This document shows, piece by piece, positions 19,798 through 44,703 of a stretch of 64,000 nt of DNA. The notes below the pieces were generated by a model. That model searched no databases. It had not been told where the DNA came from and was given only the letters and a program-made list of their open reading frames with translations. A program made the position numbers and the translations under genes. The stretch is from a virus (taxonomy: Duplodnaviria > Heunggongvirae > Uroviricota > Caudoviricetes), in the IMG/VR virus record IMGVR_UViG_3300026549_000042, positions 53,745 to 117,744 of that record. The stretch is one strand, 5' to 3'. Numbering within the stretch: the first letter of the stretch is position 1; each line of letters starts with the position of its first letter.

Positions 19798-19854
19798 CTG
19801 ATTTTTTACAATGTTGTCTAAAATTAAATATTATAATAAATTTAATTAAAAATC

Positions 19855-20724
19855 ATGAATAGTATATATTTTTTTACAATAGCCACAAATACATATAAAG
19901 AATACTTAAATAAATTTGTTAAATCTTTAGATAATTGTTTTCCTGATAATGATAAGAAATTGATTGTAATAAGCGACAAGGATTATATAAATAATATAAA
20001 TAATATTTATACATATAATTATCATATTTGTGATACTAATTATGCATTATGTGCTTTACAAAAATATACATATATTTATGATTCTATACAGTATCTTCAA
20101 TTAAAACTAAAAAAGAATGACTTAATATTCTTTTGTGATGTTGATTCATATTTTATAGAAAAATCAAAATCATATTGGAATAAGATATATAATTCTATAA
20201 TAAAATATGATATCTGTATATCTATTTTTCCATGGAATTATAATGATACTAATAAATATAGAGTAATGAAAAAATATAAAAATATACCATCAATTGCACA
20301 AATAAACAAATTTAGATATAATCTTTTATGTGCATCATTTTTAATTGCTAAGCCATTTTGGTTTAACAAAATATATAAATTAGTTGATTTATTAACAGCG
20401 TATGATATGGCTAATTTACAAAATGGTTGTAGAATAATTCCAGAATTACCTGAACAAGAATATTTAAATAAAATTATTCAAGAAAATATAATAAATACAA
20501 ATAATATATGGGTAGATTATTTTCAAATTATAAGTAATGATATTTTTTTACAAGAAAAGCATAAAACATTAAATGATTTTTTAGAAAATAATGAATATAT
20601 ATTTTCTATTAAAGATTATGATCCCACTATAAAATTAAAAAATATAAAACGTAATCTTTCTAAGAGTAATATAATGCAGTTTATAAAAAATGAATCTAAC
20701 AATAACAGTAATGATAACACCTGA
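19855..20724 (+). CDS. divergent GT6-like protein (possibly degenerate)
   Basis: N-terminal IYFFTIATNTYKEYLNKFVKSLDNCF...KLIVISD aligns with GT6 [25 protein letters not shown]...YYVFTD; IFPWNY present, but the FGG and HDE motifs are degenerate. Confidence 0.4.
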   Translation: MNSIYFFTIATNTYKEYLNKFVKSLDNCFPDNDKKLIVISDKDYINNINNIYTYNYHICDTNYALCALQKYTYIYDSIQYLQLKLKKNDLIFFCDVDSYFIEKSKSYWNKIYNSIIKYDICISIFPWNYNDTNKYRVMKKYKNIPSIAQINKFRYNLLCASFLIAKPFWFNKIYKLVDLLTAYDMANLQNGCRIIPELPEQEYLNKIIQENIINTNNIWVDYFQIISNDIFLQEKHKTLNDFLENNEYIFSIKDYDPTIKLKNIKRNLSKSNIMQFIKNESNNNSNDNT

Positions 20725-21514
20725 TATAACTTATTATTTTTGCTGTCATAAAGATATTGACTTAACATATATTAATAAATATGTAGATAATATTGATGAT
20801 AATAGAATAAATATTATTTGTAATGAAGATAATAATATAATAACAAAATATAATATCATTAAAGAACCTTATAATGATCTTCAATGTTTTTATGGGGAAA
20901 ACTCTAGAATGATTTATATATATAAATTATATAAAGAAGGAAAAATTAAATTAAGTGATTATATATCATTTAACCAATATGGATTGTTTTTTAATTTTTA
21001 CATGTATGATAGAATGTGTGGATTATTAAAGTATAATGATGCATTAGTACATGGGCAATATTTTAATAATATATATAATAGTTATAATAGTTTACATAAT
21101 GGCGAAGACTTATTAGAAATTGTTAATTATATATGTGAAAAATATAATGTAAATAAATATTATAAAGAATATTTTTTATATGATGCAAATTATCCAGGAC
21201 ATTATAATATATTTATACTTAAAAAAAACATATTTATTAAATATATAGAATTTATAATTGATATATCAGATTATTATAAAAGAAAACATAATATTAATAC
21301 ACAAAATGATTTAAGAAAATATATATCAAATAATGCAAATAAATATTATAATGAAAATAAACTTAATTGGTATTGGGGAGTTGATAATCAAATGAGATTA
21401 TTTGGATTTATATCAGAAAGAATATTTGGATTATTTTTGACAATAAATAAAATAAATTATTCTACATTTCCTTATATAGATATACAATATCTATCAAAAA
21501 TAAATAGAAATTAA
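20690..21514 (+). CDS. hypothetical protein in the glycan locus
   Basis: 274-aa ORF overlapping the upstream gene by 35 nt. Confidence 0.45.
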   Translation: MNLTITVMITPDITYYFCCHKDIDLTYINKYVDNIDDNRINIICNEDNNIITKYNIIKEPYNDLQCFYGENSRMIYIYKLYKEGKIKLSDYISFNQYGLFFNFYMYDRMCGLLKYNDALVHGQYFNNIYNSYNSLHNGEDLLEIVNYICEKYNVNKYYKEYFLYDANYPGHYNIFILKKNIFIKYIEFIIDISDYYKRKHNINTQNDLRKYISNNANKYYNENKLNWYWGVDNQMRLFGFISERIFGLFLTINKINYSTFPYIDIQYLSKINRN

Positions 21515-21521
21515 TTAAATT

Positions 21522-22346
21522 ATGACAGATAATACATTAATAATAAGTTTAACATCATGGACAAAACGTATTGATACTGCATTTTTTACATTAACTAAAT
21601 TATATGATATATCATTAAATAAAGATGTACAAATTATATTTAACTTATCACAAGAAGAATTTCCTTATGGTATAAATAGTCTCCCATATTGCTATAAAGA
21701 GTTTTTACAAAAAAGTTCTATAATTATTAATGTTGATGAAGGTAATATTAGGGCGCATAAAAAACTTATGCCAACATTAGAAAAATATCCATATAATGAT
21801 ATTTTAGTTGTAGATGATGACAAATTATATGAGGAAGATATGATAGATAATTTTTTACAAGCTCATAATAAATTTCCACATGATGTTATAGTTGGTAGAT
21901 CTCATTTTAGAATATATGGTGAAAACAATAAATTTATATCTAAACCAATAGTTTATGATTTAAGTAAAATATGGGAAACACCATTAAGTCCATTATTTAA
22001 TTGTAAACAAGCATCTGGATTAGCTGGAACATTATACCCCGTAGGTACTTTTACGGATCCTTTATTTTTCGATAGAAAACTAATGATGGAAAGTTGCTAT
22101 TATAGTGATGAAGATTGGCAATGGTTTTTTAATATAAAAGAAAATAGAACATTAAGAACAAATTTTAAAGTAAAAGTATATTCAGGAAATAATGATGGTG
22201 ATGAATATGCATTATATAATAATTATGGACAATCTTATTATGAACAATACTATTACAATTTTCAAAAAATCTGGTCAGATTTTTATGATAGACTTAATGA
22301 ATTAAATGATCAGTTTATAAGATATTATCCTGAACTTTCTGTGTAA
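21522..22346 (+). CDS. putative glycosyltransferase (GT-A-like, DDD motif)
   Basis: ILVVDDDKLYEED acidic motif; located in the glycan locus; function tentative. Confidence 0.4.
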   Translation: MTDNTLIISLTSWTKRIDTAFFTLTKLYDISLNKDVQIIFNLSQEEFPYGINSLPYCYKEFLQKSSIIINVDEGNIRAHKKLMPTLEKYPYNDILVVDDDKLYEEDMIDNFLQAHNKFPHDVIVGRSHFRIYGENNKFISKPIVYDLSKIWETPLSPLFNCKQASGLAGTLYPVGTFTDPLFFDRKLMMESCYYSDEDWQWFFNIKENRTLRTNFKVKVYSGNNDGDEYALYNNYGQSYYEQYYYNFQKIWSDFYDRLNELNDQFIRYYPELSV

Positions 22347-25542: not shown

Positions 25543-26322
25543 TTATTTTGTATATTTATATCTTATATTCAAAACTGATGTAAGCTCAGCAGTTTGTATA
25601 TGTAATTGATGAAGATTAATATTATCCATTGCAACTTCATTTTGATATTCTAATACTAAAAGCCCCATAATTAAATTATTTTTATTGTACATGCCAGTAT
25701 ATACAATTGACTTAGTATTATCATCTTTCAGTATTGCCATTAAAACTGGATTTTCTTCTTCAAATTTTTCCATATCAGTATAAATTACTTGTTGTGTTGG
25801 CGACTTAATAACATCAGTTACAATATTAGCTATTGAACTAAATGCTAAACCCATACAACGATTTGATAATGGAATAAGTCCTTTATCAAACCATTCATAG
25901 TTACAAGAATATTTAGCAAATGGGATGCCTGAAAAATTTTGTGATGTATTATGAAATTCTACAATGAATGCTCTTTGTGCATTATGGATATTCATTATGT
26001 CTTTAAGCTGATAATTGATTTCTGATGCACTAATCATTCGAGCTTCAAGCATATTATTATGGTTTTCATTATCTTTATTTTCTTTGTTTACCAAATAATC
26101 AACTAATTTGTCTTGCTGTGATATCATTGTTGTTATTAGTTGGTCATTTTGCTTACTCATTTGGGTGGTAAGATCGGTACCAATTTTTTCAAGTCCAGTA
26201 CTTATTTCAGTATTTAACTTATTACCAAATTTTCGTAATAGAATAAAAATTATCATACATACAAATAAGCCAATAATACCTATCCATCCATATTTCTCAA
26301 ATATATCAAAAAATATACTCAT
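25543..26322 (-). CDS. membrane-anchored hypothetical protein
   Basis: N-terminal TM WIGIIGLFVCMIIFILL. Confidence 0.5.
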   Translation of the reverse strand: MSIFFDIFEKYGWIGIIGLFVCMIIFILLRKFGNKLNTEISTGLEKIGTDLTTQMSKQNDQLITTMISQQDKLVDYLVNKENKDNENHNNMLEARMISASEINYQLKDIMNIHNAQRAFIVEFHNTSQNFSGIPFAKYSCNYEWFDKGLIPLSNRCMGLAFSSIANIVTDVIKSPTQQVIYTDMEKFEEENPVLMAILKDDNTKSIVYTGMYNKNNLIMGLLVLEYQNEVAMDNINLHQLHIQTAELTSVLNIRYKYTK

Positions 26323-26470
26323 TATATTTTATCAATGATTATCCCATATATAATTCTTATATATTAATAATAAAACTTATAATTAAAAAATTAAATATAG
26401 CTTAAAATTCAATATAATTAGAATAACAAGATATTGAAAAAATGAAATATTTTTAATTAAATATCTATAT

Positions 26471-26499
26471 TATTATAGATGTTTTATTATAGATGTTTT
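26471..26499. repeat. 14-bp direct repeat (attatagatgtttt x2) in the divergent promoter region upstream of nrdG
   Basis: Read directly from the sequence. Confidence 0.5.
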
Positions 26500-26530
26500 A
26501 ATAATTTTATTTATATAGAGGAATATATAT

Positions 26531-27025
26531 ATGCTTAGAATTTTAAATATTACAGCACCAGACATTAATAATGGTAATGGAATTAGAGTAACACTGTGGG
26601 TAGCAGGTTGCAAGCATTATTGTAAAGGCTGTCATAACCAATGGACATGGAAATATGAGCAAGGAAAAGTATATCGTTATGAACAAGAAAATATAAAAAA
26701 GGAACTTGCTAATTGGTTAAATCGTGATTATGTTGAAGGATTGACATTATCAGGAGGTGATCCGTTGTGTCAAGATAATGATGGACTATGTGAATTGCTT
26801 GATTTGATCAAATGGTTTAGAAAAGAATATCCAACAAAGAACATTTGGTTATATACTGGATATACAAAAGAAGAAATTGACAATTCTAATAACTATATAA
26901 TGAAAGAAGTTGTGAACAGTATTGATGTGTTAGTTGATGGTCCGTATATTGAAAGTCTAAGAGATATATCACATACTCCATTTAGAGGCAGCACAAATCA
27001 AAGATTAATATATATTAAGAAATAG
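26531..27025 (+). CDS. nrdG: anaerobic ribonucleotide reductase activating protein (radical SAM)
   Basis: DINNGNGIRVTLWVAGCKHYCKGCHNQWTW, LTLSGGDPL, IWLYTGYT, VLVDGPY, FRGSTNQ; collinear with E. coli NrdG. Confidence 0.9.
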   Translation: MLRILNITAPDINNGNGIRVTLWVAGCKHYCKGCHNQWTWKYEQGKVYRYEQENIKKELANWLNRDYVEGLTLSGGDPLCQDNDGLCELLDLIKWFRKEYPTKNIWLYTGYTKEEIDNSNNYIMKEVVNSIDVLVDGPYIESLRDISHTPFRGSTNQRLIYIKK

Positions 27026-27057
27026 TTATTTTTAATTAACTATATAGAATAATTAAA

Positions 27058-27456
27058 ATGAAAAGTCTTTATACATATATTTTAGAAGCAGATAGTAAAG
27101 ATGATAAGGAAAAAGATATGACTCGTAGAGGTAATATCAAATTTACTATATGGGAAGCACCAGACAAAAAGGTAAAATGGATAGAAAATAATAATAAGTA
27201 TCAAAAGATTGAATATAAATATGAAGATAAAGACAATGAAATATACATTGATTTTCTTTTAGGATTTAAAGAAAATGAATGGAAGCTTTGGATTGGAAAA
27301 ATAGGAGCCTTGACTTATGATGATGACCCTTATTGTGGATTTGATACAGATTCATTTAGAGATGCTATTTTGTTAGCATTAGACAAGGTTGAAGAATTTA
27401 TTGATAAAGTTAATGAAGATCCTGATAATTATATACAATTCTATAAGCTAAAATAA
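27058..27456 (+). CDS. hypothetical protein
   Basis: 132-aa ORF. Confidence 0.5.
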   Translation: MKSLYTYILEADSKDDKEKDMTRRGNIKFTIWEAPDKKVKWIENNNKYQKIEYKYEDKDNEIYIDFLLGFKENEWKLWIGKIGALTYDDDPYCGFDTDSFRDAILLALDKVEEFIDKVNEDPDNYIQFYKLK

Positions 27457-27480
27457 TAATTTTATTTTTTTATAATATTA

Positions 27481-27534
27481 AATCTTCTTAAGTCTGTAAC
27501 TATATTTTATAAAAGGACTTAAGAAGATTTTTTG
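27481..27534 (+). terminator. long inverted repeat / probable terminator
   Basis: aatcttcttaagtc ... gacttaagaagatt followed by tttttt. Confidence 0.4.
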
Positions 27535-27541
27535 TATATAT

Positions 27542-28384
27542 ATGAATAAACCAGAAGTACTTATATTTCCAGATGTACATGGAAGAAAATTTTGGAAAGA
27601 TGCTATTGACAAATTTCCAAAGAATCAATATCCCGATTTGAAGATAGTTTTCTTAGGTGACTATATAGATCCTTATGTAGATTATGATGGGATAAGTAAA
27701 GAGGAAGCATTTGTAAATTTTGAAGATATTCTTGAATATATCAATAATGATTCACGAATAGTTCCTTTAATTGGAAATCATGATTGGCACTATTTTGTAA
27801 GTCTTGATACTTGTCGTATTGATAAAGCTCGTGAAAGAGATATTGAATATATGTTCAAGAACAATATTTCAAAATTTAGACTATCATATATACTTGAACT
27901 TAATGATTCCAAATATTTGTTTAGTCATGCAGGAATAACACAGAAGTGGCTAAATGATATTACTGGCATGGCTACACAGGAAGTAAATAAATGGAATCCT
28001 GGTGAAGGTGAAAATTATGTAGATCCAAAGACAGATGAAAAATATATTTGGATTGAAAAAATGTCCCATATTGCCAATAGTCATGATTTTTCATTGCTTG
28101 AAACTTGTCTTCAAAAATATAATGACTATTTTTACAGTTGTCCTATTTCAATAATTAGTCATGAAAGAGGCGGTTGGTACCCTCATGGATCTCTTATTTG
28201 GGCAGATATACATGAACATCTTTTTAATGAAGATCTAAAAGGATATTACCAAATATTTGGGCATACATATTCATATCCATCTACATCAGAACCTGCTATA
28301 TCTCCAATGGGGCATTGCTGGGCTATGCTTGATTGCGGTAGTGCATTTGTAATGGATATTGAAGGCAACATTGAAAAAATATAA
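27542..28384 (+). CDS. metallophosphoesterase (Ser/Thr phosphatase / ApaH-like calcineurin fold)
   Basis: PDVHG, LGDYIDPY, GNHDW motifs in canonical order. Confidence 0.8.
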   Translation: MNKPEVLIFPDVHGRKFWKDAIDKFPKNQYPDLKIVFLGDYIDPYVDYDGISKEEAFVNFEDILEYINNDSRIVPLIGNHDWHYFVSLDTCRIDKARERDIEYMFKNNISKFRLSYILELNDSKYLFSHAGITQKWLNDITGMATQEVNKWNPGEGENYVDPKTDEKYIWIEKMSHIANSHDFSLLETCLQKYNDYFYSCPISIISHERGGWYPHGSLIWADIHEHLFNEDLKGYYQIFGHTYSYPSTSEPAISPMGHCWAMLDCGSAFVMDIEGNIEKI

Positions 28385-28400
28385 ATAAATTAATATAAAT

Positions 28401-29261
28401 ATGTTTGAAAAGGTAACACCAAGTCATCCAGATAAGATAGCTGATCGTATTGCTGGAGCTATAGTAGATTTAGCATATACTATTGAAAAAAATCCTAAGA
28501 TTGCTGTAGAAGTATTAATAGGACATGGGGAATGCAATATTATAATTGAAAGTAATGTATATGATAAATTGTCAAATACTGATATACAACATATAGTATA
28601 TCGTATTTGTAATGATAATAAGATTTTTGTAGACATACACAAAATTCCACAAGATACATATTTAGCTAATAATCAAATAGGTGAGATAAAATGTGGTGAT
28701 AATGGTATATTTAAAGGTACACCTGTAACATATGAACAACAAAAATTGTCATTAATCACACAACTTATATATGATAACTATCCTTATGATGGTAAATACA
28801 TATATAATGAAAAGGAAGATACTATAATAGGATGTCAATCACATATACAAACAAATAATTTAATTAATATATTGAAGAAATTTGCAAAGAATGTGAAAGC
28901 AAATCCATTAGGGGATTGGACAGGCGGTATTGATTCTGATTCTGGTGCTACTAATAGAAAACTTGGTAGTGATATGGGAGATTCAGTAACTGGTGGCGGT
29001 CTGCATGGTAAAGATCTTTCAAAAGCAGATGTAGCTGTCAATATATACTGTTTTCTTAAAGCACAAGAACTAAAGAATGACTATGAACTATATTGTGCAA
29101 TTGGTGATGATACTATAGATGGTAAGAAATATTCTGAAATTGTTGAAATTGCAAGAGAATATATTGAAAGAATTGGAGGATTTGAAAAGTTTGCGGAATG
29201 GGGACTAATAACATATGAATCATCAATTACAAACAGATTAATAAGCAAATTAAATTCTTAA
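28401..29261 (+). CDS. compact, divergent S-adenosylmethionine synthetase (MetK) homologue
   Basis: SHPDKIADRIAGAIVD matches MetK EGHPDKIADQISDAVLD; GATNRKLGSDMGDSVTGGGLHGKDLSKADVAVNIY matches MetK [38 protein letters not shown]; 286 aa versus about 384. Confidence 0.65.
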   Translation: MFEKVTPSHPDKIADRIAGAIVDLAYTIEKNPKIAVEVLIGHGECNIIIESNVYDKLSNTDIQHIVYRICNDNKIFVDIHKIPQDTYLANNQIGEIKCGDNGIFKGTPVTYEQQKLSLITQLIYDNYPYDGKYIYNEKEDTIIGCQSHIQTNNLINILKKFAKNVKANPLGDWTGGIDSDSGATNRKLGSDMGDSVTGGGLHGKDLSKADVAVNIYCFLKAQELKNDYELYCAIGDDTIDGKKYSEIVEIAREYIERIGGFEKFAEWGLITYESSITNRLISKLNS

Positions 29262-29347
29262 AAACATCTAAATAAATTTTCAATAATATTTAAATTCTAA
29301 AATTTTCATAACTATATTAAATCATCAATAAATTAAAAAATAAAGTT

Positions 29348-29494
29348 ATGATCAGCAAAACAAAAGAAAAGATCAAAAGAAAGTACACGAGAACTTATAA
29401 AGAAGGTGATCATTCGGTAATAGTATCATATGATCCTACTTTATTTTTTAAAATTAACTATCCTGGTGAATACGTAGATTTTGAAGAAGTTTAA
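29348..29494 (+). CDS. small hypothetical protein (48 aa), not in the supplied track
   Basis: ORF MISKTKEKIKRKYTRTYKEGDHSVIV... fills an otherwise empty 280-bp gap. Confidence 0.25.
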   Translation: MISKTKEKIKRKYTRTYKEGDHSVIVSYDPTLFFKINYPGEYVDFEEV

Positions 29495-29541
29495 GTAAGT
29501 ATATAAAAATTATTAATAAACAATTTAAAATTATTAAACTT

Positions 29542-29754
29542 ATGGCATCAACATTTAATCTTGAACAGTTCAAAATGGGTAAGAAGGCACAGACTAAACT
29601 TGGTAATCCTGCACGATTCATTACAGTATCAAATCACAATGAACTTATTGTAGCAGTTAAGCCCAGATGGTCAGAAGAACAATGTGAAAAGTATAGTTTG
29701 GATGGAAAACGATTGCATAATCCTAATTCAGTATATGATCTAGAAATGGTTTAA
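29542..29754 (+). CDS. hypothetical protein
   Basis: 70-aa ORF. Confidence 0.4.
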   Translation: MASTFNLEQFKMGKKAQTKLGNPARFITVSNHNELIVAVKPRWSEEQCEKYSLDGKRLHNPNSVYDLEMV

Positions 29755-29787
29755 CTATATAAATAATTTAATAATAGTTTTTTTACT

Positions 29788-30324
29788 ATGATGACTCATT
29801 GGTATTTAATTGGTTTTTATTTTGTCATGGCAGTATTTATCATCAAATATCTTGTATCATGGATATTTGGTGATGTTGATGTCGACTTCGATATTGATGG
29901 CGATATGGATTTTGACATCTCTTCAATGCTTTCATTCAAAGGCGTGCTTCATTTTCTTATAGGTTTTCTTGGATATTTGTCAGTTACTGCCAGATTTTCA
30001 TCCACATATGTAATTGATGAACCATATAAGTTTTCTACTGGTAATTATATGGGAGCAATTATATGCGGTATTATATTTATGATAATTTTGTGGTATGCAT
30101 ATAATATTACTGCTAAGTTTAGTCATGAAAATACTGATATGCCCGACTTTACTAATTGTGAAGGAAGAATTCTTGCAAATAATGGTGATGGTACATATGA
30201 AGTTCTTATATTTACTTCGGCAGGATCATACAAAAAGACAGTAAGATCAGGAGCAAATGAAACTAGTATAGAAGTTGGAAGTGTTGTAAGAATATTGAAA
30301 ATAAATAATGAATATGTAATATAA
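29788..30324 (+). CDS. NfeD-like membrane protein (YuaF/YqiJ-like; TM N-terminus plus C-terminal OB-like beta domain)
   Basis: Three or four TM helices, then GRILANNGDGTYEVLIF...VGSVVRIL; architecture and position upstream of the flotillin gene. Confidence 0.5.
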   Translation: MMTHWYLIGFYFVMAVFIIKYLVSWIFGDVDVDFDIDGDMDFDISSMLSFKGVLHFLIGFLGYLSVTARFSSTYVIDEPYKFSTGNYMGAIICGIIFMIILWYAYNITAKFSHENTDMPDFTNCEGRILANNGDGTYEVLIFTSAGSYKKTVRSGANETSIEVGSVVRILKINNEYVI

Positions 30325-30340
30325 GATGTAATATAAGAAT

Positions 30341-30523
30341 ATGTCAATTAAAGAAGTAATATATGAAGTTCTTAAGAACAATATGGACAATAACTGTAAT
30401 AATGATACCGAAATTGTTGTAGATGGTGAGAATTTTATGGGAGCCCCTATTAAACGAATTTATTATGATAAGGAAGTAAACCAATTATGTATAAAAATAA
30501 ATGAAAATGAAGCGATGGATTAG
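30341..30523 (+). CDS. small hypothetical protein
   Basis: 60-aa ORF. Confidence 0.35.
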   Translation: MSIKEVIYEVLKNNMDNNCNNDTEIVVDGENFMGAPIKRIYYDKEVNQLCIKINENEAMD

Positions 30524-30971
30524 TATTTGTATTGTATTATTTATATCTATTATATGTCAAGCACAACGTATATATGTCGGTAATTCTACATCATATTCAA
30601 ATATTGTAGTTAATATCAAAAATGGATATGTATATACTGGAGATTCTTCATTACGTTCAAATATAATTATGCATTACAATAATGAATATTTGTATGAGTA
30701 TGATTCGAATTTAACATCAGATATTATTGCAACATATTCTAATGGAAAGATATATAAAGGAAAAACAAAATTGACATCTAATATTTTATATACATACAAA
30801 AATAACAAAATATATAATGGAAATTCTACATTAAATTCCGACATATTATATATCTATATTAACAATAAATTTTATAAAGGAAATTCTACAATGGAATCTA
30901 ATGTAATATTACGAACAAGTTCATATGTAAATCCTTTAATATTAGTAGTAATAAGTAATTTAATATATTAA
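30501..30971 (+). CDS. secreted tandem-repeat protein
   Basis: Signal peptide MKMKRWISICIVLFISIICQA, then six repeats of about 20 aa (Y.GNST/S.L.SNI....Y.N.KIY). Confidence 0.5.
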   Translation: MKMKRWISICIVLFISIICQAQRIYVGNSTSYSNIVVNIKNGYVYTGDSSLRSNIIMHYNNEYLYEYDSNLTSDIIATYSNGKIYKGKTKLTSNILYTYKNNKIYNGNSTLNSDILYIYINNKFYKGNSTMESNVILRTSSYVNPLILVVISNLIY

Positions 30972-31004
30972 CACATTTTTTAATTTTTTAAATTTTAATT
31001 TTTT

Positions 31005-33005
31005 ATGAGTGGTATTTATTTAACAATTGGTATGGTGGCTTTTGGCGCATTGCTATTTATTGCAACTGTTGTAGCAGTTTTGACACGCTATAGGAGATCT
31101 GCACCTGATGAACTGTTGGTAGTTTTCGGTAAAGCTGGTAAAGTAAAGGATGAGCATGGAAAGACAATTATGACACCTTCTAAGATTATTCAGGGTGGTG
31201 GTACTTTTGTATGGCCTGTCATTCAGGATTTCAAGAAGATGTCAATGAAGCCTATTCAGATTAAGGCAACTGTTGACGGTATTGATTCACAAGCAATTCA
31301 GTTGCATTTGCCAGTAGTATTGACAACTGCTATTTCTCAAGACAAGATGATCCAGCAAAATGCAGCAACACGTTTCTTGAGTGCATCACCTGGGGAAATT
31401 CAGCAACAGATTCAAGAGATTTTGATTGGTGAGACTCGTGCTATCATGGCAACAATGCTTATTGAGGACATTAATGCTGACCGAGATAAGTTCCTTGCTA
31501 AAGTACGTACAAATCTTGAACAGGAATTGATTAAGATTGGTTATGATGTAACTAACATTAACATTTCTGAAATTACTGATGATGCCAACTATATTAAGAA
31601 TATGGGTCAAAAGGCAACTACACGTAAGCAAGCAGAAGCAGAGGCAGATATTGCTGAGCAGCGTAAAGTAGGTAATGTAAAGATTGCAAATACTAAGAAG
31701 GAAGAAGAAATTGCTGTGGCTGCTGCAGAAAAGGAGAAGCAGGTACAGGTAAATCAAACTAAACAGGAACAGGAAGTAACTGTGGCTAATATTAATCGTG
31801 AAAAGGAGATTAAGTTAGCAGAAGCAACTAAGGAACGTGAATCTGGTATTGCTGCACAGGAAGCTGAAAAGGCAGCTCGTATTGCTGAAGCTCAGGCAGA
31901 TGCTGAATCAAATAAGGCTAAGGCTATGGCACGTCAGATTGCAAGTGTAGCAGAGGCAGAGGCAGATGCTGAATCAAAGAGAGCGGAATTTGAAGCAACA
32001 CAGACTAAGAATATTGCAAAAGCGCAAGCAGATGCCGAAGCTGCACAAAATGAGGCAGAGGCATTGAAACAGACGCGTATTGCTCAGGCTAATCAGGAAA
32101 AGGAAGCTAATGTGATTAAGGCTACCCAGGAAAAGGAAGCTAAGGCAGCTGAATATGAATCAAGTAAGCGCCAGAAGAAAGCAGAGCAAGACAAATTGGC
32201 AGGTGTAGCTGAACAGGAAGCAAAAATTGATGTTGCAAAGGCTCGGGCTAAGGCAGCTCAGGCAGAGGCAGATGCAGTAAAGGTCGGTGAGACTGCAAAG
32301 GTTGAAGCAGAAATGTCAGTGGCAAAAACTAGACAGGAACGTCAATTGGAAGTAAATAAGGCACAAGCAAAAGCAGCAGAAGAGCAATTGAATGCTACTG
32401 AAATTGTACCTGCAAATAAGGCTAAGGAAAAAGCTATTATTGAAGCGGAAGCCATTAAGCGTAAAGCAGAACTTGAAGCAGAAGCTGTAAAGGCTCGTAT
32501 TCTTCGTGAGGCGGAAGCAGAAGCCCAGAAGACACAAATGATTAAGGAAGCTGAAGCTGAAGGTAATCGTAAGAAGTTACTTGCAGAAGCTGAAGGTGCA
32601 GAAGCTATGGCACTTGCTAAAGCTAAAGGTATACAACAGGAAGCACTTGCTCCAGCTATGGCATTTGAAAGAATGATTCAGGCAGCAGGTAGTCCAGAGA
32701 TGGCAGTACAATGGAAGATGGTTGATCAGTATAAGGGTATTGCAGAAGCTCAGGCTCATGTATTAGAGCATGTACAACTTGGAAATGTTACTGTCTATGG
32801 TGATAAGAATACTGGTGCTGATTTTGCTAAGAGCTTTGTTCAAAACTTTGCACCAGCTCTCGATATGATTAACCACGGTGTTAAGGATCAATTCCAGAGT
32901 TTATTTGGAACTAAAAAGGATGAACTTATGCCTCCAACAGATCCTACTCCATCCAATGGAAAGAATAGTGATCAGGACAATTTAGTATTTGAAGACATAG
33001 ATTAA
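31005..33005 (+). CDS. flotillin-like SPFH/band-7 protein (YqiK family) with long Ala/Glu-rich coiled coil
   Basis: N-terminal membrane hairpin IGMVAFGALLFIATVVAVL...RYRRSAPDE.LVVFG, SPFH core, about 350 aa of AEAEA/KAKA coiled coil; mirrors E. coli YqiK. Confidence 0.8.
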   Translation: MSGIYLTIGMVAFGALLFIATVVAVLTRYRRSAPDELLVVFGKAGKVKDEHGKTIMTPSKIIQGGGTFVWPVIQDFKKMSMKPIQIKATVDGIDSQAIQLHLPVVLTTAISQDKMIQQNAATRFLSASPGEIQQQIQEILIGETRAIMATMLIEDINADRDKFLAKVRTNLEQELIKIGYDVTNINISEITDDANYIKNMGQKATTRKQAEAEADIAEQRKVGNVKIANTKKEEEIAVAAAEKEKQVQVNQTKQEQEVTVANINREKEIKLAEATKERESGIAAQEAEKAARIAEAQADAESNKAKAMARQIASVAEAEADAESKRAEFEATQTKNIAKAQADAEAAQNEAEALKQTRIAQANQEKEANVIKATQEKEAKAAEYESSKRQKKAEQDKLAGVAEQEAKIDVAKARAKAAQAEADAVKVGETAKVEAEMSVAKTRQERQLEVNKAQAKAAEEQLNATEIVPANKAKEKAIIEAEAIKRKAELEAEAVKARILREAEAEAQKTQMIKEAEAEGNRKKLLAEAEGAEAMALAKAKGIQQEALAPAMAFERMIQAAGSPEMAVQWKMVDQYKGIAEAQAHVLEHVQLGNVTVYGDKNTGADFAKSFVQNFAPALDMINHGVKDQFQSLFGTKKDELMPPTDPTPSNGKNSDQDNLVFEDID

Positions 33006-33029
33006 AAATACCACAAATATTGAATTATA

Positions 33030-33070
33030 AAAAAAGAACCTTACTTAAGTAAGGTTCTTTTGTTTTTTTA
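33030..33070. terminator. bidirectional terminator
   Basis: aaaaa-agaaccttacttaagtaaggttct-tttgttttttt; palindrome with CTTAAG core. Confidence 0.65.
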
Positions 33071-33877
33071 AGATAACCAATAAAATGGATATAATTTAGT
33101 ATAAAATGTTGATGTAGTAGAATATAAATAAATTCCAATTAAAAATTCTATTGCTATACCGTATATTCTTTTATGATTTTCTTTAGTTGTAAACCATGTA
33201 AATTTATCGCATATTTTTTCCATATCAACAATTTCATATATATTATCATCCATAAAAACAGAAAATTCTTCAATAGTATTAATATTGTATTTTCTTAATA
33301 TATGTCTTATAAATGATTCTATGAAATTAACTAAAGATTGAAAAGTATTCCAATTTGTAACATATATTTCACGTCCACAAATATATAAGATATTGTTTTC
33401 TGTTGTGATATTTTCTATCTTTTTTATTTTAGAATGCTCTTTAATTTGTTGTTGTATATCTATTGGTTGAGATTCCATAAACTCAACAAAATCATTATAT
33501 ACAGAAATTGCCCCATATTCATATAAATAAGCATATATAAGTTCATATGTTGCTTTCTCTTTTATAGCCTTTTCTAAAAAATTTTTATATATGTTATAAG
33601 TACATGTAAATATTTGTGTCTTATTATTTTCTATTATTTCTTTACTGTTTATAATATATTTGTCTATAATTCGTCTATATTGGCAAAAACCTATATAATC
33701 TTCAGGTCGTCCATATTTCGCGATACAATATTGTGCAACAAATTCATTAATATATTTATCCATCTTCAATATTATATCATCATTATTTACGGTATATACA
33801 AGTCTAGTGTTTAAGTATTTATAATTATTGTTGCTTACATAAACAAATGAATCACTATGTCCTATTATATATATCAT
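33068..33877 (-). CDS. hypothetical protein
   Basis: 269-aa ORF directly downstream of a putative glycosyltransferase. Confidence 0.45.
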   Translation of the reverse strand: MIYIIGHSDSFVYVSNNNYKYLNTRLVYTVNNDDIILKMDKYINEFVAQYCIAKYGRPEDYIGFCQYRRIIDKYIINSKEIIENNKTQIFTCTYNIYKNFLEKAIKEKATYELIYAYLYEYGAISVYNDFVEFMESQPIDIQQQIKEHSKIKKIENITTENNILYICGREIYVTNWNTFQSLVNFIESFIRHILRKYNINTIEEFSVFMDDNIYEIVDMEKICDKFTWFTTKENHKRIYGIAIEFLIGIYLYSTTSTFYTKLYPFYWLS

Positions 33878-33879
33878 TA

Positions 33880-34707
33880 CTAAATTTCATTATATTTATA
33901 TGCTCTTTGCTCATTTGCAGTCAATATACTTTCTTTATCTTTTAAGTCTTCATTAATCTCAAAAAAATCATGTAACTTTCTTGAATATGCATTATTGTCC
34001 ATTTCACCTCTTACAAATAATCTGTTACAATATTCTTCCCATGATTTTGTAAGATAATGTCTTAATTTAAATGGTGGTTCTGCGGCCCAGTGTGTATCAT
34101 AAAACTTTTTTGCGGTTTCAGGTAAATTATATACATACAATGGTCCATGTGGAATATTAGCAAATTCATTATCCTCCATTCTATGAACAAACAATAATGG
34201 CTTTCCGTTGTCATTCATATCTATATATCTTTTAGTCATTGGTTTAGTATATGTTTCTATCAATGAATATTCTTTACCATGTCCAGGATCTTCAATATGT
34301 CCATTTGCGGTCATTGTTATCCATCTAAACTTTATTGCATGCTTACCCTCATTATATATATTATTTATGTATGACAAAAATTCTTCTTTATTACAGTCTA
34401 AAAATTCATCAATATCAATATATAATACAGCATCATAATTCTTACTAAACTTTCTTTTGAATATATACCACATTATTGCTATTCTATATTCACCATTAAA
34501 AGCACCGTTTAACTCTTGTTCATTACATACATCTATGAATTTATACAGTTTAACATTTGGATATTGATTAGTAATTTCTTTATGTGAAGTACTATTAATG
34601 TCTTCAAATAATATAATATCATCTATGCCAATGCTTGTATAAAACTCGATGAACTCTCTTAAATATCTTTGTTCATCTTTAATCATCGTACATGTACAAA
34701 TTTTCAT
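33880..34707 (-). CDS. putative glycosyltransferase (GT-A-like, DxD motif)
   Basis: AVLYIDIDEFL acidic motif; overall layout resembles small GT-A transferases; tentative. Confidence 0.45.
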   Translation of the reverse strand: MKICTCTMIKDEQRYLREFIEFYTSIGIDDIILFEDINSTSHKEITNQYPNVKLYKFIDVCNEQELNGAFNGEYRIAIMWYIFKRKFSKNYDAVLYIDIDEFLDCNKEEFLSYINNIYNEGKHAIKFRWITMTANGHIEDPGHGKEYSLIETYTKPMTKRYIDMNDNGKPLLFVHRMEDNEFANIPHGPLYVYNLPETAKKFYDTHWAAEPPFKLRHYLTKSWEEYCNRLFVRGEMDNNAYSRKLHDFFEINEDLKDKESILTANEQRAYKYNEI

Positions 34708-35734: not shown

Positions 35735-36010
35735 ATGGAATCTTTATTAGTAAATAAAAAAGATCTATTGAACAAAATTAATTCGGTATTAGATACTCTT
35801 AATTCAATTAAAACAGATATAATGAAAGATATTGAATTAGATGATATTACAATGATTGAAGATGTTAAAGAAAGTAAATATAAGGAAACATTAAAGACTT
35901 TAACACCTCAAAAACAATCAAAAACCAAGAGGTATGGAGATGAGTATGAAAGTACTAATGGATGGAATGAAGTAGGTGATAATAGTGTATTACCTAATAT
36001 TACCATGTAA
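35735..36010 (+). CDS. hypothetical protein
   Basis: 91-aa ORF; 3' end overlaps the convergent terminase gene by 11 nt. Confidence 0.4.
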   Translation: MESLLVNKKDLLNKINSVLDTLNSIKTDIMKDIELDDITMIEDVKESKYKETLKTLTPQKQSKTKRYGDEYESTNGWNEVGDNSVLPNITM

Positions 36011-38657
36011 AATTATCATATTCACTAAATTCTGTAATATTTGCTATATTTGTTGGCATTTGATACATATTATTTTGTTCAAACATATTAAATTGGTTTA
36101 GTTCATCATTTGAATTAAACCAATTATTGTTTATTGACTGTTGTATATTGCTTATTGCTATTTCTTCAATAAAATCTTTATATCTTGGTGTTTGTAATAC
36201 TAATGGTATTTGAACAAAAGTCATAATAATGTCATCATGTCCATAAGATGCTTTATAAGACCCATTTCCATTCTTATCTTCAAATCCTTCAAGTTCATTA
36301 ATAGCTAACATATCGGTTGTTGTAACATTGCCCTTTTCAAAATTAATCTTAAGTAATGAGCATGCTACTGACTTATTACCGGAAGTCATACGAACTCCAG
36401 GTATATATTTTGAATTGACATTTAGTCCCATATTAGCAATTTGTTCATCTAAAGGACCTTTCTTATATAATACGAAATTATACATATCAATACCCTCAGG
36501 CACAATGTTAAATCTCCAATTGTAGTCTATATTATAGTCATTTTCATTATAGTTAGACAATAATGTATAGAATAATGCCCCATAAGTATTCCATTCCAAT
36601 GACCATAATGTTCTATCATCATTAAATAATTGACCAACTAATAGCCAAAATTCAAGTGAAGCAAACTCTAGTTCAATCTCATTACTTGACCAACGACCTA
36701 CGTGAATGAACTTATCTTTTTCTGGAATATAAAATATGTTAAATACTGTACTGTCTTGACCGGAACCTTCAGCAAGATCAACTGTTATTAAGAATCTGCC
36801 AGTACGTAACAACTTAAAATCAAACTGAGGATCCCAAAACAAACATTCCGAATGAGAAAGATATATATGTGGAAATTCCTTCATAAAATCTTCTGTTCTG
36901 TTATCCCATAATACTGATGTATCTCTTAATTTACTTAAACATTCTCTTGATACTAAGCATTTATCACTTGCAGAGAATTGCGTGCCATATTGATATTGGA
37001 ATGCTTCTTCTGAACCAAGAATACCTACCATTTTCTTGTGCCATGCTTCTGTTCTTTTTTCCCATTTTTTAGTTACTTTATTCCATTCTGGTACTTGATC
37101 CCAGTCAACTTTAAATGGTCCATATATGTTTTTCTTTTCAATAGCAGCTTTCCAAAGTTTATAGAAAAGATTAAATCCATTTTGTGTTGACATAATACAT
37201 ACATTAGCAGAACTATCAGCAGTAATAGTAGGAATAATATTGTTATAGAATAGTTCTACATCATTAGGAGGACACCAAGCAAACTCATCAAGAATAAGGA
37301 AGTTAATTGTTTTACCAAGACCTGCTGTAGGTGAGAATGCTTCTGTAGAAATTGATGAATTGTTGTCAAAAGAAATTTCTGATTGATTCCATTTATATAC
37401 ACCAACTTTTAAAAAATATGGAAGACACATATACATATCTTTTATCTTTGCTAATAAGTCTCTACCTGCAGGTCCAGATTTAGAAAGTATTAGGGCCATT
37501 TTATCGGTATTAAATAATATTATCCAAAGACAATAGATTGCTGTTGTAGTTGAATTATGACTTAATATTCCATTTGAATAGAATCTATGGTTTTCATCAT
37601 TAACTGTTGTATCACACATTGATATTTTAGTTGATGAAATTTTTAATGAAACAATTTTTTGTAATCCTTTATCAGTTTGAATATAATCACCAATTGATAA
37701 ATTTTTTACATATATTTCATTAAATTTTTCATCAAATACTATATGTTCATCCGCACAATTTAATTCATAACCATTTTCTAATTTTATTATATATTGTTCA
37801 AATGGCTTAGTTATCATTATATGAGATAAAGGTTTATATCCAGTATCTGTCAATATTTCAATATTATCATGTAATTCAATTTCTTTAATAGTTTTATAAT
37901 TATCTATAAGTTTTTCTTTTCTTATATAATGATAATCTATATGATCTATTATAGAAATTAATTTATATAAAAATTCTATAAATTGTTGGGAATCTTCATG
38001 TTTCTTTTTTTCTTTATTCCTTTTATTCCTGCCATAAGTTAATCTATAAATTATTTTATATAATTGATATTTACATTTCCATATTAATGTTTGCTTACAA
38101 TATAAATTATAAAGTTCAAAAATTGGTAAATTATAAATATTATCCTTTATACAATAATGATTTATTTTATTAACATGTAAATAATAATCTATATATGTTT
38201 TATTAATTCTTACATAAATATTTGACAACATGTTAAGAGATTTGCCACTTTGTCTACAACTCAACATTATACTGAATGGGTGTGTCTGAAGATGTTTTAA
38301 ATAATTAATTTGATAATCTCGTAATTCAACAGGAGAAAATCCACCAGCAGGATTTTTAAGATAGCATTTAGATGCAAAATATACAGGATCTTGCATACAT
38401 TTTATATAGTCGTCTATTTCCTCTTCCGTTCTTTTATATACAAGATCTGCCTTTAAAAGTTTTGTATTTTTACCAATAAAAGGATTAGCCTTAAGTGGTA
38501 ATCCTTGTTTTAGTGCTTCTACGGCTTTATTTAATGAATATGTTGACCAAACTACACGTTCAGCTTCTTTACCACCTATTTGTTTTTTAACAGGATCAAA
38601 TTCTCTGTCTTTACTTATATCATATTCAAAGTCTTTATCTTGTGTATTATCCTGCAT
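36000..38657 (-). CDS. terL: terminase large subunit containing an intein in the Walker A P-loop
   Basis: DYQ...CRQSGK[intein]STTTAIY reconstitutes RQSGKST; Walker B FLILDEFAW; C-terminal nuclease motif GHDDIIMTF. Confidence 0.85.
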   Translation of the reverse strand: MQDNTQDKDFEYDISKDREFDPVKKQIGGKEAERVVWSTYSLNKAVEALKQGLPLKANPFIGKNTKLLKADLVYKRTEEEIDDYIKCMQDPVYFASKCYLKNPAGGFSPVELRDYQINYLKHLQTHPFSIMLSCRQSGKSLNMLSNIYVRINKTYIDYYLHVNKINHYCIKDNIYNLPIFELYNLYCKQTLIWKCKYQLYKIIYRLTYGRNKRNKEKKKHEDSQQFIEFLYKLISIIDHIDYHYIRKEKLIDNYKTIKEIELHDNIEILTDTGYKPLSHIMITKPFEQYIIKLENGYELNCADEHIVFDEKFNEIYVKNLSIGDYIQTDKGLQKIVSLKISSTKISMCDTTVNDENHRFYSNGILSHNSTTTAIYCLWIILFNTDKMALILSKSGPAGRDLLAKIKDMYMCLPYFLKVGVYKWNQSEISFDNNSSISTEAFSPTAGLGKTINFLILDEFAWCPPNDVELFYNNIIPTITADSSANVCIMSTQNGFNLFYKLWKAAIEKKNIYGPFKVDWDQVPEWNKVTKKWEKRTEAWHKKMVGILGSEEAFQYQYGTQFSASDKCLVSRECLSKLRDTSVLWDNRTEDFMKEFPHIYLSHSECLFWDPQFDFKLLRTGRFLITVDLAEGSGQDSTVFNIFYIPEKDKFIHVGRWSSNEIELEFASLEFWLLVGQLFNDDRTLWSLEWNTYGALFYTLLSNYNENDYNIDYNWRFNIVPEGIDMYNFVLYKKGPLDEQIANMGLNVNSKYIPGVRMTSGNKSVACSLLKINFEKGNVTTTDMLAINELEGFEDKNGNGSYKASYGHDDIIMTFVQIPLVLQTPRYKDFIEEIAISNIQQSINNNWFNSNDELNQFNMFEQNNMYQMPTNIANITEFSEYDNFTW
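37554..38240 (-). mobile_element. intein (about 229 aa) inserted between GK and ST of the terminase P-loop
   Basis: Begins with Ser after ..RQSGK; ends ..MCDTTVNDENHRFYSNGILSHN with +1 Ser (block F/G-like); the central N/K/Y-rich region may be a degenerate endonuclease domain. Confidence 0.6.
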
Positions 38658-40290: not shown

Positions 40291-42054
40291 TTATGCTTCA
40301 GTGGTTTCGGCAGATTCAGGTTGTACATCACCCATCATTTCATCATCAATTTCTCCGCCGCCTTCTTCTTCACCACCGCCTAATTCATCTGTACCTTCTG
40401 CTCCTTCTTCTTCACCGCCACCTAATTCATCTTCACCTTCTGCGGATGCTCCGCCTTTATTCTTTTCTTCTAACTTAAGTTTTTCATTAAGTTCAAGATC
40501 AGCTTCAGACATCTTAAGATATTTTTGAATCAAGAACTTCATAGCAAAGAAAGGTATATCATTACCTTCTGAATCAGTCTCAACTAACGAATCTTTCATT
40601 GTACTTATAAATTCAATACGTTTTGTCATAATTTCAATATTCATCATTTCTTCAAATTGATTATATGAATTCCAACGTAAAGAAACTGAATCTAATATTC
40701 GCTTGTCATTCTTAATATCAGGAATAGATAATGTAAGTTGAATACGTAATGGCTTAAGCAATATATAACCGAAAGTATTGCGAAGACGATTTACAAATCT
40801 AGCAAAATCAATTTCTTCTCTTAATGCTTGTGTAGGATCTGAACCAAACCATGTTGCTTGAGATTCTTTGTCAAATCTATTAAGAGGAATTTTTGACATT
40901 TTATATAATTTCTCTGCAAAATACTTAATTTGATCTGAATCATTAAGTGTAGGACCAGAATCAACAAGCGTTTCTATTTCTGGCTTACCGCTCTCATTTT
41001 GTGGAAGCCAATATTCTTTGTTGAATGGTAAATTTACTCTACCGTTTACTTTTATTTCACCAGTATCTTGATTGAATGATATATCTTCTTTGTATCTGTT
41101 CATTGCAGATGCTAATGTTTGCATTCCTTTTGCTCTATTCATACCGCCAACAGGAATTGTAAACATTGTCTTAAATGAAGATTGCGTAACTGTCCAAATA
41201 ATTTGTGCTTGCTCAATAATTCTATATATATTAAATGGGCGAATAAGACGTTCTAGATATGATTGTCTATTTGTTACACCAGAATCTTCATATTTAATAT
41301 ATATGATCTGTGAATCTAACAGTTTACGTTCTCTACCAACAACACCCTTAAATTGAACCCAATATATAATACCATTTTCAACTGACTTAGTTAATGTATT
41401 TGGGTCTAGATCAACAATATTTATAATTGATTTTGGATATTCTATGTTATCATATACTATTTCATATGCAAGTACACCTTCAATAAGCCATCTCTTATAA
41501 ATATCCCAAGCCCTGTTTTTCCAGTTCAACAATAAATATATCTTATAAAAATTAGCATTAATGCATTTGTCAATTTCTTCTGCATTCTTTTCATTAAGAT
41601 CTTGAATAAGTCCATTGTCTAAGAACGGTGTACATATATAAGCTTCTTCATCATCATATACAATTGACTCATTAGACATCATATCTAATATATCCTCAAG
41701 TTCAGGTTGTACTGCAAGTTTTCTTAATATTTCTCGTTTTTGGTCAAATGATTTTTCTTGGAATGTCTTTTCTTCATCAGGTTTTACTTTCCAATTGTTT
41801 AACCAAGACCCATATAGATTTTGCTGAAGAACTGCATCATCTTTAGGTTGCAAAAACTTGTCTGCTGGAATAGCCATCATGTTCTTAAATATCTTATCAT
41901 CATAGTCCATTCCATAATGTGACAATGATGTAAGAATCTTAGAAAATCTTGTTGGCTTTTTAATATTAGCTATAGACTCGTAGTAGTTTTGCTTTACAGC
42001 CTCCATTATAGTTTGTTCATTTTCTAATACATTATTTAAATTACCAAAATTCAT
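40291..42054 (-). CDS. hypothetical protein with Gly/Glu-rich acidic C-terminal tail (possible portal protein, unverified)
   Basis: 587 aa; C-terminal GGASAEGEDELGGGEEEGAEGTDELGGGEEEGGGEIDDE; same-strand cluster with terL. Confidence 0.5.
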   Translation of the reverse strand: MNFGNLNNVLENEQTIMEAVKQNYYESIANIKKPTRFSKILTSLSHYGMDYDDKIFKNMMAIPADKFLQPKDDAVLQQNLYGSWLNNWKVKPDEEKTFQEKSFDQKREILRKLAVQPELEDILDMMSNESIVYDDEEAYICTPFLDNGLIQDLNEKNAEEIDKCINANFYKIYLLLNWKNRAWDIYKRWLIEGVLAYEIVYDNIEYPKSIINIVDLDPNTLTKSVENGIIYWVQFKGVVGRERKLLDSQIIYIKYEDSGVTNRQSYLERLIRPFNIYRIIEQAQIIWTVTQSSFKTMFTIPVGGMNRAKGMQTLASAMNRYKEDISFNQDTGEIKVNGRVNLPFNKEYWLPQNESGKPEIETLVDSGPTLNDSDQIKYFAEKLYKMSKIPLNRFDKESQATWFGSDPTQALREEIDFARFVNRLRNTFGYILLKPLRIQLTLSIPDIKNDKRILDSVSLRWNSYNQFEEMMNIEIMTKRIEFISTMKDSLVETDSEGNDIPFFAMKFLIQKYLKMSEADLELNEKLKLEEKNKGGASAEGEDELGGGEEEGAEGTDELGGGEEEGGGEIDDEMMGDVQPESAETTEA

Positions 42055-43572: not shown

Positions 43573-44703
43573 ATGATAAAAATAGATAGTTGTATAATAG
43601 TCAAAAATGAAGAAAACAATATTTCACCTTTATTGGATCAATTATTACAGTTTTCTTCAGAAATTCATATTACAGATACTGGATCAACAGATGCAACAGT
43701 TAGTATTATTGAAGACTATGCAAAAAATTATCATAATATATTTGTAAATCATTTTGATTGGATATATGACTTTAGTGCGGCAAGAAATTTCTCATTAAAT
43801 TATGATAATGATACATCGGAATTTAAATTTTGGTGTGATGCTGATGATCAATTAAGTGATAAGCTTCTACAAATGCTTATTGATATAGCACAAAATGGTG
43901 ACTATAATACAATGAATGGTGCATACGGAATAAGATATGTATATTATACTGGAGACAAAAACCCATATTTTAGAATACCTTTATTTAAGACAAATTCCGG
44001 TTTTAAATGGAATGACCCAATACACGAATATCTTTCATTTGATCAATCAACAATACATAACTATAATTACTTTACCGATGATGCAGTAATTATTCATAAA
44101 CGAGCTGAAGGCGTAACTCATAATGATAGAAATCTTCAAATATTCAAAAATGCTGAAGCTGAAAATAAGCCGTTCACTTCTAGAATGTATCATTATTATG
44201 GTATGGAACTGTATCAAGCAGGTGATGAACGTGCATATGAGATACTTACAAAGTCTTTATACTGTGAAGAACATATAGATCCACAAAATCTAGTTCGTTC
44301 ATTATGTACAATGTATATAATTGATAAAGATAATAATGGATGGATTAATGAAGCATATAGAGTAATGAGTAAGGGCATTTGTAGGGGTGATTTATTGTAT
44401 TATATTGGAAATTGGTATATGAAACGAGAATTGATTGAACTTGCGAAAATGTTCTATAAAAGTGCATTAACATTTAGAATACCAAAATCATTAACATTTG
44501 GACTTAACAATATGGACATAACTATAAATCCATTATTGCAACTTGGTGTTATATATGCAAATTTTGAACATGATTTCAATAAAGCATTAATGTGCAATAA
44601 ATCAGTATTAGACTATGATCCTAACAACCAAACAGCTAAGTCAAATATTGCAATACTATATAAGCTTATTAATGAACAAAATATTAAAAATACTGAAATG
44701 TAA
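43573..44703 (+). CDS. glycosyltransferase family 2 protein with C-terminal helical (TPR-like) region
   Basis: DSCIIVKNEENNI...HITDTGSTDATV...FWCDADD. Confidence 0.65.
   Translation: MIKIDSCIIVKNEENNISPLLDQLLQFSSEIHITDTGSTDATVSIIEDYAKNYHNIFVNHFDWIYDFSAARNFSLNYDNDTSEFKFWCDADDQLSDKLLQMLIDIAQNGDYNTMNGAYGIRYVYYTGDKNPYFRIPLFKTNSGFKWNDPIHEYLSFDQSTIHNYNYFTDDAVIIHKRAEGVTHNDRNLQIFKNAEAENKPFTSRMYHYYGMELYQAGDERAYEILTKSLYCEEHIDPQNLVRSLCTMYIIDKDNNGWINEAYRVMSKGICRGDLLYYIGNWYMKRELIELAKMFYKSALTFRIPKSLTFGLNNMDITINPLLQLGVIYANFEHDFNKALMCNKSVLDYDPNNQTAKSNIAILYKLINEQNIKNTEM

Follow-up and report, generated by a model that had tools for sequence, protein, structure and literature searches.

The stretch of DNA analysed here, called the window throughout, comprises 64,000 nt of the IMG/VR virus record IMGVR_UViG_3300026549_000042 (Caudoviricetes; positions 53,745 to 117,744) and carries a flotillin operon of two core genes: one for an NfeD2/YuaF-like flotillin partner of 178 amino acids (29788-30324, + strand), and one for a flotillin of the prokaryotic SPFH2 type, of 666 amino acids (31005-33005, + strand). 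Operons of the p-flotillin/NfeD2 kind are already known, and database pipelines name such proteins in a few phage records; the finding added here is that the whole flotillin/NfeD operon is fixed in two phage lineages. As the best explanation we favour, with moderate confidence, a phage-borne prokaryotic flotillin operon in a low-GC, T4-like phage of gut or rumen, working by the mechanism proposed below.

The strongest evidence is gene context. IMG/VR was scanned a second time with selection by flotillin alone, yielding 149 viral stretches, and in all of the best 80, which were kept, a partner gene lies upstream on the same strand, at a distance of at most 60 nt in 70 loci and of 61-500 nt in 10. 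An earlier note on this DNA, made from its letters alone, had likened the pair to the NfeD-flotillin operon arrangement, and the 80 loci bear this out. One group of loci belongs to the T4-like clade, with flotillins 66-84% identical to that of the window; the other, on contigs of up to ~155 kb, has flotillins 37-39% identical and matches csAssE-Sib, an epsilon crAss-like phage. This second group comprises 68 loci that are close to one another, so the independent observations are far fewer than 80. A set of 18 flotillin-bearing loci from phages and metagenomes outside the window (loci are given L numbers below) contains several duplicates, and L003-L006 in it were retrieved via the partner itself; the partner is upstream on the same strand in 17, the exception being the T5-like Vibrio phage KIT04. 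There the flotillin is preceded by an 82-residue membrane protein without a beta domain (L002, 4689-4937), which gives no match to the NfeD-like profile and may be a truncated or an unrelated partner. Metagenome relatives of the T4-like clade, whose flotillins are 67-80% identical to that of the window, lie on contigs of 83-180 kb with Gp23, a T4 neck protein and the S77 prohead protease. Band_7 genes also follow two distant members of the partner family, those in L021 and L022. L021 looks like a bacterial contig and has an HU-CCDC81/SPOR gene; its flotillin aligns collinearly with the phage protein, at 35% identity over 473 residues. The two phage lineages, T4-like and epsilon crAss-like, are unrelated, and the gene order of the pair is fixed in both.

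The partner directly adjoins the flotillin in most relatives. In the window, a gene for a secreted 6-fold beta-flower repeat protein (30501-30971, + strand, 156 amino acids; Pfam PF21786 Bflower_3, E 1.4e-29) stands between the two, with homologues of 43-51% identity in the same position in L003-L008 and in none of the 80 IMG/VR loci. Because it is confined to this subclade (the window and L003-L008), we regard the beta-flower gene as an insertion into an ancestrally adjacent pair.

By its sequence matches, the 666-residue protein is a prokaryotic flotillin (SPFH2 type) and not a member of another SPFH family. Three results carry this identification. The sole NCBIfam match, at E up to 0.1, is FloT (NF058507; E 7.9e-36, 124 bits); a search of 177,635 PDB sequences (E up to 0.001) matched flotillin-2 (E 9.8e-20, query residues 61-438) and flotillin-1 (E 7.2e-17) only, with no stomatin, prohibitin or HflK/C chain; and the C-terminal flotillin-type region (residues 511-624, 32535-32876, + strand) aligns at 40% identity (E 1e-23) with the stretch of the csAssE-Sib homologue that passes the Pfam Flot model PF15975 (38 bits against a cutoff of 27), the window protein having a 22-residue insertion within this region. 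The SPFH/Band_7 domain occupies residues 34-220 (31104-31664, + strand) and is the best-conserved part of the flotillin among relatives; the Pfam search that the earlier note had suggested as a check finds it as Band_7 (PF01145) over profile positions 5-175 of 176 (E 1.4e-21, 77.8 bits against a cutoff of 23.6). An Ala/Glu/Lys-rich helical region, a predicted coiled coil, follows at residues 206-545 (31620-32639, + strand), with 25.6% Ala, 17.6% Glu and 13.5% Lys, 57 EA/AE dipeptides and 2 Pro; AlphaFold2 (AF2) places long helices at 254-436 and 470-561, with predicted local distance difference test (pLDDT) scores mostly of 50-84, and the region is longer than in the L021 flotillin (64 gap positions in the alignment). 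Thus the SPFH core and the long Ala/Glu coiled coil described earlier stand, the latter at 340 residues. The membrane hairpin described with them is to be corrected: the N-terminal membrane anchor (residues 1-29, 31005-31091, + strand; Kyte-Doolittle maximum 2.65, model helix 3-30) is one hydrophobic stretch of ~25 residues, followed by RYRR, for which hairpin and single-span topologies are indistinguishable from sequence.

The long Ala/Glu helix could also be read as that of a virion protein, either tape-measure-like or internal to the head. Long helical Ala/Glu-rich proteins occur among phage structural proteins, and the flotillin gene of L009 lies at most 8 kb from gp23. Evidence against such a role comes from the membrane anchor and the SPFH domain, from the obligate partnership with a membrane protein and from the persistence of the pair while flanking genes vary among relatives. 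The flotillin matched no structural PHROG, its only match being phrog_200 ('lipoprotein', category other; E 7.7e-09, residues 46-244), and among the homologues found none is annotated as a tail or structural protein, an outcome that had been raised earlier as one that would count against a flotillin. We consider a structural role extremely improbable.

For the 178-residue protein, identification as an NfeD draws on profile, fold and context evidence, since curated models match nothing. The AF2 model (mean pLDDT 76) has helices at residues 5-27, 50-70 and 84-111, a linker at 112-123 and five strands forming an OB-like C-terminal domain at 124-177 (30157-30318, + strand), in agreement with the polytopic membrane protein with a C-terminal OB-like beta domain that had been described from the letters. 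This is the layout reported for short NfeD proteins associated with SPFH proteins, namely three hydrophobic stretches, a short hydrophilic linker and an all-beta soluble C-terminal domain (PMC2636767). There are 19 close homologues, and a library of 1.84 billion proteins holds 254 representatives of the family at E up to 1e-3, the full-length ones mostly of 150-200 amino acids. A profile of 92 members has B. subtilis YuaF (2k14) as its best PDB sequence match, over the C-terminal domain. A PDB profile search with 20 close sequences had returned a transporter match alone, which is spurious, and the broader 92-member profile was needed. In BFVD the best match is a full-length homologue of 175 amino acids with the UniProt name 'NfeD-like C-terminal domain-containing protein' (E 1.6e-11); a Foldseek search of the partner against the PDB gave generic OB folds only, none significant. 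These links are individually weak yet mutually agreeing, and they support an NfeD2/YuaF-type partner.

Between helices 1 and 2 of the partner lies an acidic loop, GDVDVDFDIDGDMDFD (residues 28-43, 29869-29916, + strand), an alternating poly-Asp stretch with a weak counterpart in E. coli YqiJ. Asp residues D31, D33, D35, D37, D41 and D43 are invariant in an alignment of 19 sequences, and D31 and D33 are at least 90% conserved among 92 family members; the AF2 pLDDT of the loop is below 50. It might be a metal-binding or a flotillin-contact site.

Alternatively, the phage protein might modulate a host membrane protease such as FtsH, with an SPFH cage enclosing or regulating the protease in the manner of HflK/C and thereby changing the stability of phage or host proteins. 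SPFH complexes do associate with FtsH, as in HflK/C-FtsH (PMC12330512), an interaction of YbbK with FtsH is described (PMC2636767), and long NfeD forms bear a ClpP-type protease domain (PMC13086221). The phage protein, however, groups with flotillins, matching no HflK, HflC or QmcA model or PDB chain and no stomatin, and its partner is a short NfeD without the protease domain. Protease modulation is improbable in our view.

The window is phage DNA. Profile searches of the window identify a T4-type large terminase (open reading frame (ORF) 36000-38657, - strand), a portal protein (40291-42054, - strand; phrog_213, E 4e-81) and an NrdD-like reductase (8864-10591, - strand), and the terminase and portal confirm that the flotillin gene sits inside a phage genome, as the earlier note had it. 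The phage belongs to an uncultured lineage: megablast of 35000-59000 matches no phage record at the DNA level, and blastn of 29000-34000 against phage records finds a short conserved piece only. At ~26% GC, an ORF of 2 kb is far past chance expectation.

Comparison of the window with four relatives gave ratios of nonsynonymous to synonymous substitution rates (dN/dS) of 0.10-0.15 for the flotillin and 0.29-0.48 for the partner, values that are rough at the dS of ~1.0-1.8 involved and that place both genes under purifying selection as estimated from these alignments. For the same genome pairs the flotillins are 67-80% and the partners 38-51% identical, with almost no flanking genes in common. 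Among 185,579 species-representative genomes there is one close relative, in a rumen Methanobrevibacter metagenome-assembled genome. This contig (L020; CACYVR010000057.1, 5.9 kb, 'uncultured Methanobrevibacter sp.') encodes a flotillin 73% identical to that of the phage and probably comes from a low-GC phage, misplaced in binning on account of its composition.

That single cellular match, together with the bacterial-looking contig bearing a homologous pair, is what would favour regarding the module as passenger DNA, that is, recently acquired host genes or bacterial DNA that was mis-assembled or mis-binned. The terminase and portal genes lie at most 10 kb away on the same contig, and T4 structural genes surround the module on the 83-180 kb contigs of relatives. 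A dS of ~1 or more between phage copies, a dN/dS of 0.1-0.5, a nearest bacterial-looking flotillin at 35% identity and the failure to find a close cellular homologue indicate instead that the pair was acquired long ago and has been maintained. The passenger explanation is largely refuted and, as we see it, very unlikely.

The mechanism that we propose runs as follows. The NfeD-like, beta-flower and flotillin genes would be co-transcribed during infection, with the transcript ending at a terminator-like hairpin at 33032-33061, and the NfeD-like protein and the flotillin would both insert into the host cytoplasmic membrane. There the N-terminal anchor would hold the flotillin, with its SPFH domain and coiled coil of ~340 residues on the cytoplasmic face; the RYRR that follows the anchor implies this orientation, and the three membrane helices of the partner likewise imply that its OB domain and poly-Asp loop are cytoplasmic. 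The coiled coil might then let the flotillin assemble into a ring- or cage-shaped oligomer, for which there are precedents: a passage of PMC13086221 citing Tan et al. 2024 gives 26 heterodimers for the QmcA-YbbJ cage, and the flotillin-1/2 barrel has 44 subunits (bioRxiv 10.1101/2024.05.09.593390). By analogy with S. aureus, where the OB-like domain of NfeD binds the flotillin coiled coil directly and stabilises high-order oligomers (PMC11222466), the cytoplasmic OB domain of the partner may bind the coiled coil and stabilise the phage oligomer. The likeliest role of such an assembly would be to keep the host membrane and its proteins intact and energised until programmed lysis, which is the weakest step. 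The earlier note had put forward other possible roles, as an organiser of assembly or lysis sites or in altering host membrane signalling.

A sharper version of this role is counter-defence or lysis timing, in which the assembly shields the inner membrane from abortive-infection effectors that perforate or depolarise it, or from a premature holin, so that infection is completed. It is a refinement of the explanation that we favour and not truly separate from it, and we hold it as a minority possibility. Bacterial flotillin operons are tied to membrane stress, as in the sigmaW-controlled yuaFGI (PMC2636767) and in the stress survival of S. aureus (PMC11222466), and purifying selection acts on the pair in two unrelated lineages whose hosts are presumed to be of one class (PMC11054128); DynA, a host protein that remodels membranes, also alters how phage infection ends in lysis (PMC8844932). 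Set against this, PADLOC, whose library covers defence and not anti-defence, finds nothing for the flotillin or the partner, and no lysis genes are seen beside the module in the window.

More speculatively, and at odds we would put as low, the operon may be an old capture from a bacterial host, likeliest one of the Bacteroidia, that was exchanged between and fixed in T4-like and epsilon crAss-like phages because infection needs the virus-made membrane cage that it builds, for example against abortive-infection effectors or for the timing of lysis. If true, this would be the first membrane-scaffold 'organelle' shown to be phage-supplied.

Several results weigh against a flotillin/NfeD2 operon working in this way. 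The 124 bits scored by the flotillin are far under the FloT equivalog cutoff of 700, which makes it a member of the flotillin family and not a FloT orthologue, and the window protein gives no match to PF15975. Its AF2 model, built from a shallow alignment (identity at least 74%), is poor (mean pLDDT 51) and unusable for fold search or geometry; the ring or cage is thus drawn by analogy. The 178-residue partner has no Pfam, NCBIfam, PHROG or PADLOC match, and the match of its family to YuaF is marginal (E 0.022). The Pfam NfeD model (PF01957), proposed earlier as a check, fails on the window protein and touches 1 of the 92 family members (E 0.008). A YqiJ/DUF1449 label was dropped after hhalign of the partner family against E. 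coli YqiJ gave E 0.13 and a probability of 0.4%, with none of the 92 members matching DUF1449. Such weak sequence links are to be expected, since the NfeD2 proteins that accompany flotillins are described as 'minimally conserved', YuaF and PH0471 being 21% identical (PMC2636767). In the window genome itself the partners lie ~680 nt apart, with one or two further ORFs between them, a worry resolved by the direct adjacency of the pair in most relatives and by the beta-flower gene being a subclade-specific insertion.

The + strand run of ORFs from 29542 to 33005 is tight, with intergenic gaps of 16-33 nt or overlap. It opens with an ORF of 70 amino acids (29542-29754, + strand) and is closed by the hairpin at 33032-33061 (13-bp stem, T runs on both strands), which sits between the flotillin stop and a convergent gene. 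This hairpin is the only + strand terminator-like site in 26000-33400, a pattern compatible with transcription reading on from the NfeD-like gene into that of the flotillin. Between the partners the earlier note had counted two small ORFs besides a repeat protein; we find the repeat protein and one small ORF (at least 40 amino acids, + strand), at 30341-30523. This ORF, of 60 amino acids and from a mechanical listing, overlaps the start of the beta-flower gene, has a weak PHROG match alone (E 0.0067) and shows no similarity to the small ORF in the equivalent place in L007; being non-conserved, it is putative and is not claimed as a gene.

TATAAATA, the T4 late-promoter consensus, occurs at 29758-29765 (+ strand), 23 nt 5' of the start of the NfeD-like gene. 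The window holds mildly more copies of this octamer than expected (62 observed against 39 +/- 6), but relatives do not keep it 5' of the NfeD-like gene, so nothing is claimed here about when the gene is expressed. An A/T-rich TTAACTTTTTAAA-like leader is found at 30975-31004 of the window and 10-25 nt before the flotillin ATG in most relatives (L003-L018), whichever gene is upstream. It is not a general motif of the window, with 4 matches against 1.3 expected.

The host probably belongs to the Bacteroidia, as suggested by the portal relatives, the beta-flower family, its Ala-Gln cleavage context and spacer-based predictions. The nearest named relatives of the portal are those of Sphingomonas phage PAU, of Tenacibaculum and Chryseobacterium phages and of Prevotella Lak phages. 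The beta-flower family is associated with Bacteroidota. The beta-flower protein itself has a hydrophobic N-terminus with a signal peptide that ends Cys-Gln-Ala/Gln (the slash marking the cut), and the corresponding residues in L003 (8549-9016) are Cys-Asn-Ala-Gln. With its Gln at +1, this site is similar to those that signal peptidase I typically cuts in Bacteroidota, a context that hints at the host phylum. For epsilon crAss-like phages, host predictions are based on CRISPR spacers (PMC11054128).

Apart from the module, the 70-residue ORF and a DUF7487 gene, the flanking genes are non-syntenic with those of relatives, and no linkage of lysis genes to the module is seen in the window. The DUF7487 protein, with a YacG-like zinc finger (7460-8764, - strand), is encoded ~22 kb from the flotillin, and paralogue-like relatives of it adjoin the flotillin in L009 (12105-13082) and L015 (7207-8190). 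A short MetK-like protein of 286 amino acids is encoded at 28401-29261 (+ strand), in which the S-AdoMet synthetase N-terminal domain alone is detected (Pfam E 4.6e-11) together with a strong phrog_1569 match (E 3.7e-59); the relative L011 has a full three-domain MetK instead. Several glycosyltransferase-like genes (GT2, DUF4422, Glyco_tranf_2_4) occur at dispersed sites around the module, on both strands (18118-22346, 33068-34707 and 43573-44703), and may serve to modify host surface glycans or phage DNA. The terminase ORF (885 amino acids; phrog_2 covers residues 78-817 and the Terminase_6N match begins at 369) has an insert of ~230 residues after a Walker-A-like 'SCRQSGKS', ending '...GILSHNS'. 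This end resembles an intein C-terminus, and no Hint-domain profile match is seen in the ORF.

The function of bacterial flotillin with NfeD is still debated, and here a virus retains the entire two-gene unit. Since two unrelated lineages of abundant gut phages keep the unit under purifying selection, it should bring a benefit within a single infection cycle, which is a narrower setting for finding its function than the stress phenotypes of bacteria. The finding also extends the known repertoire of membrane proteins in these phages, the epsilon crAss-like group included. To our knowledge, none of the phages with flotillin and NfeD is in culture, and practical value is limited for now, the role being inferred. 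Our literature searches for studies of phage flotillins found no paper, and neither 'flotillin' nor 'SPFH' occurs in the text of the csAssE-Sib paper (PMC11054128).

Among known systems, yuaF-yuaG of B. subtilis (NfeD2-FloT) resembles the phage pair in having NfeD first and flotillin second, and YuaF shares with the phage partner the layout of three hydrophobic stretches and an all-beta C-terminal domain (PMC2636767). The phage flotillin has 666 amino acids against the 477 positions of the FloT model, and its partner differs from YuaF in the conserved poly-Asp loop, with marginal similarity. Unlike yuaF-yuaG, the phage pair is virus-borne and, in the window, has the beta-flower gene inserted between its members. 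E. coli yqiJ-yqiK is likewise an operon of a membrane protein and then a flotillin-family protein; YqiK (553 amino acids) and the phage flotillin are collinear over a stretch that runs from the N-terminal anchor into the coiled coil (22% identity, E 4e-13), and YqiJ is a DUF1449 protein of 209 amino acids. S. aureus FloA, which we take to belong to the YqfA group (SPFH5), is of another subgroup than the phage flotillin. The YqfA group of B. subtilis is SPFH5 (PMC2636767). As described, the S. aureus system is similar in that the gene upstream of the flotillin encodes a membrane NfeD whose OB-like domain is cytosolic, FloA being a protein of 37 kDa, about half the size of the 666-residue phage flotillin (PMC11222466).

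The eukaryotic flotillin-1/flotillin-2 cage (PDB 9BQ2, 9L3G) offers the sole solved structures that the sequence of the phage flotillin can detect, and the flotillin-2 match covers the SPFH domain and part of the coiled coil. Flotillins of eukaryotes lack both an NfeD partner and an N-terminal transmembrane helix, form hetero-oligomers and are ~240 residues shorter than the phage protein. With the phage SPFH proteins of PHROG 200 ('lipoprotein') the SPFH domain is held in common, the window match covering the SPFH region in part; according to a 2026 paper on a phage with an SPFH lipoprotein, why a phage genome should contain this protein 'remains unclear' (PMC13239085). GenBank already has two phage proteins named 'flotillin family protein', that of Vibrio phage KIT04 (BBL19217.1), 31% identical to the window flotillin, and that of csAssE-Sib (WOZ57345.1), 41% identical. 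In csAssE-Sib a gene of the partner family lies directly upstream (29% identity, E 5e-16).

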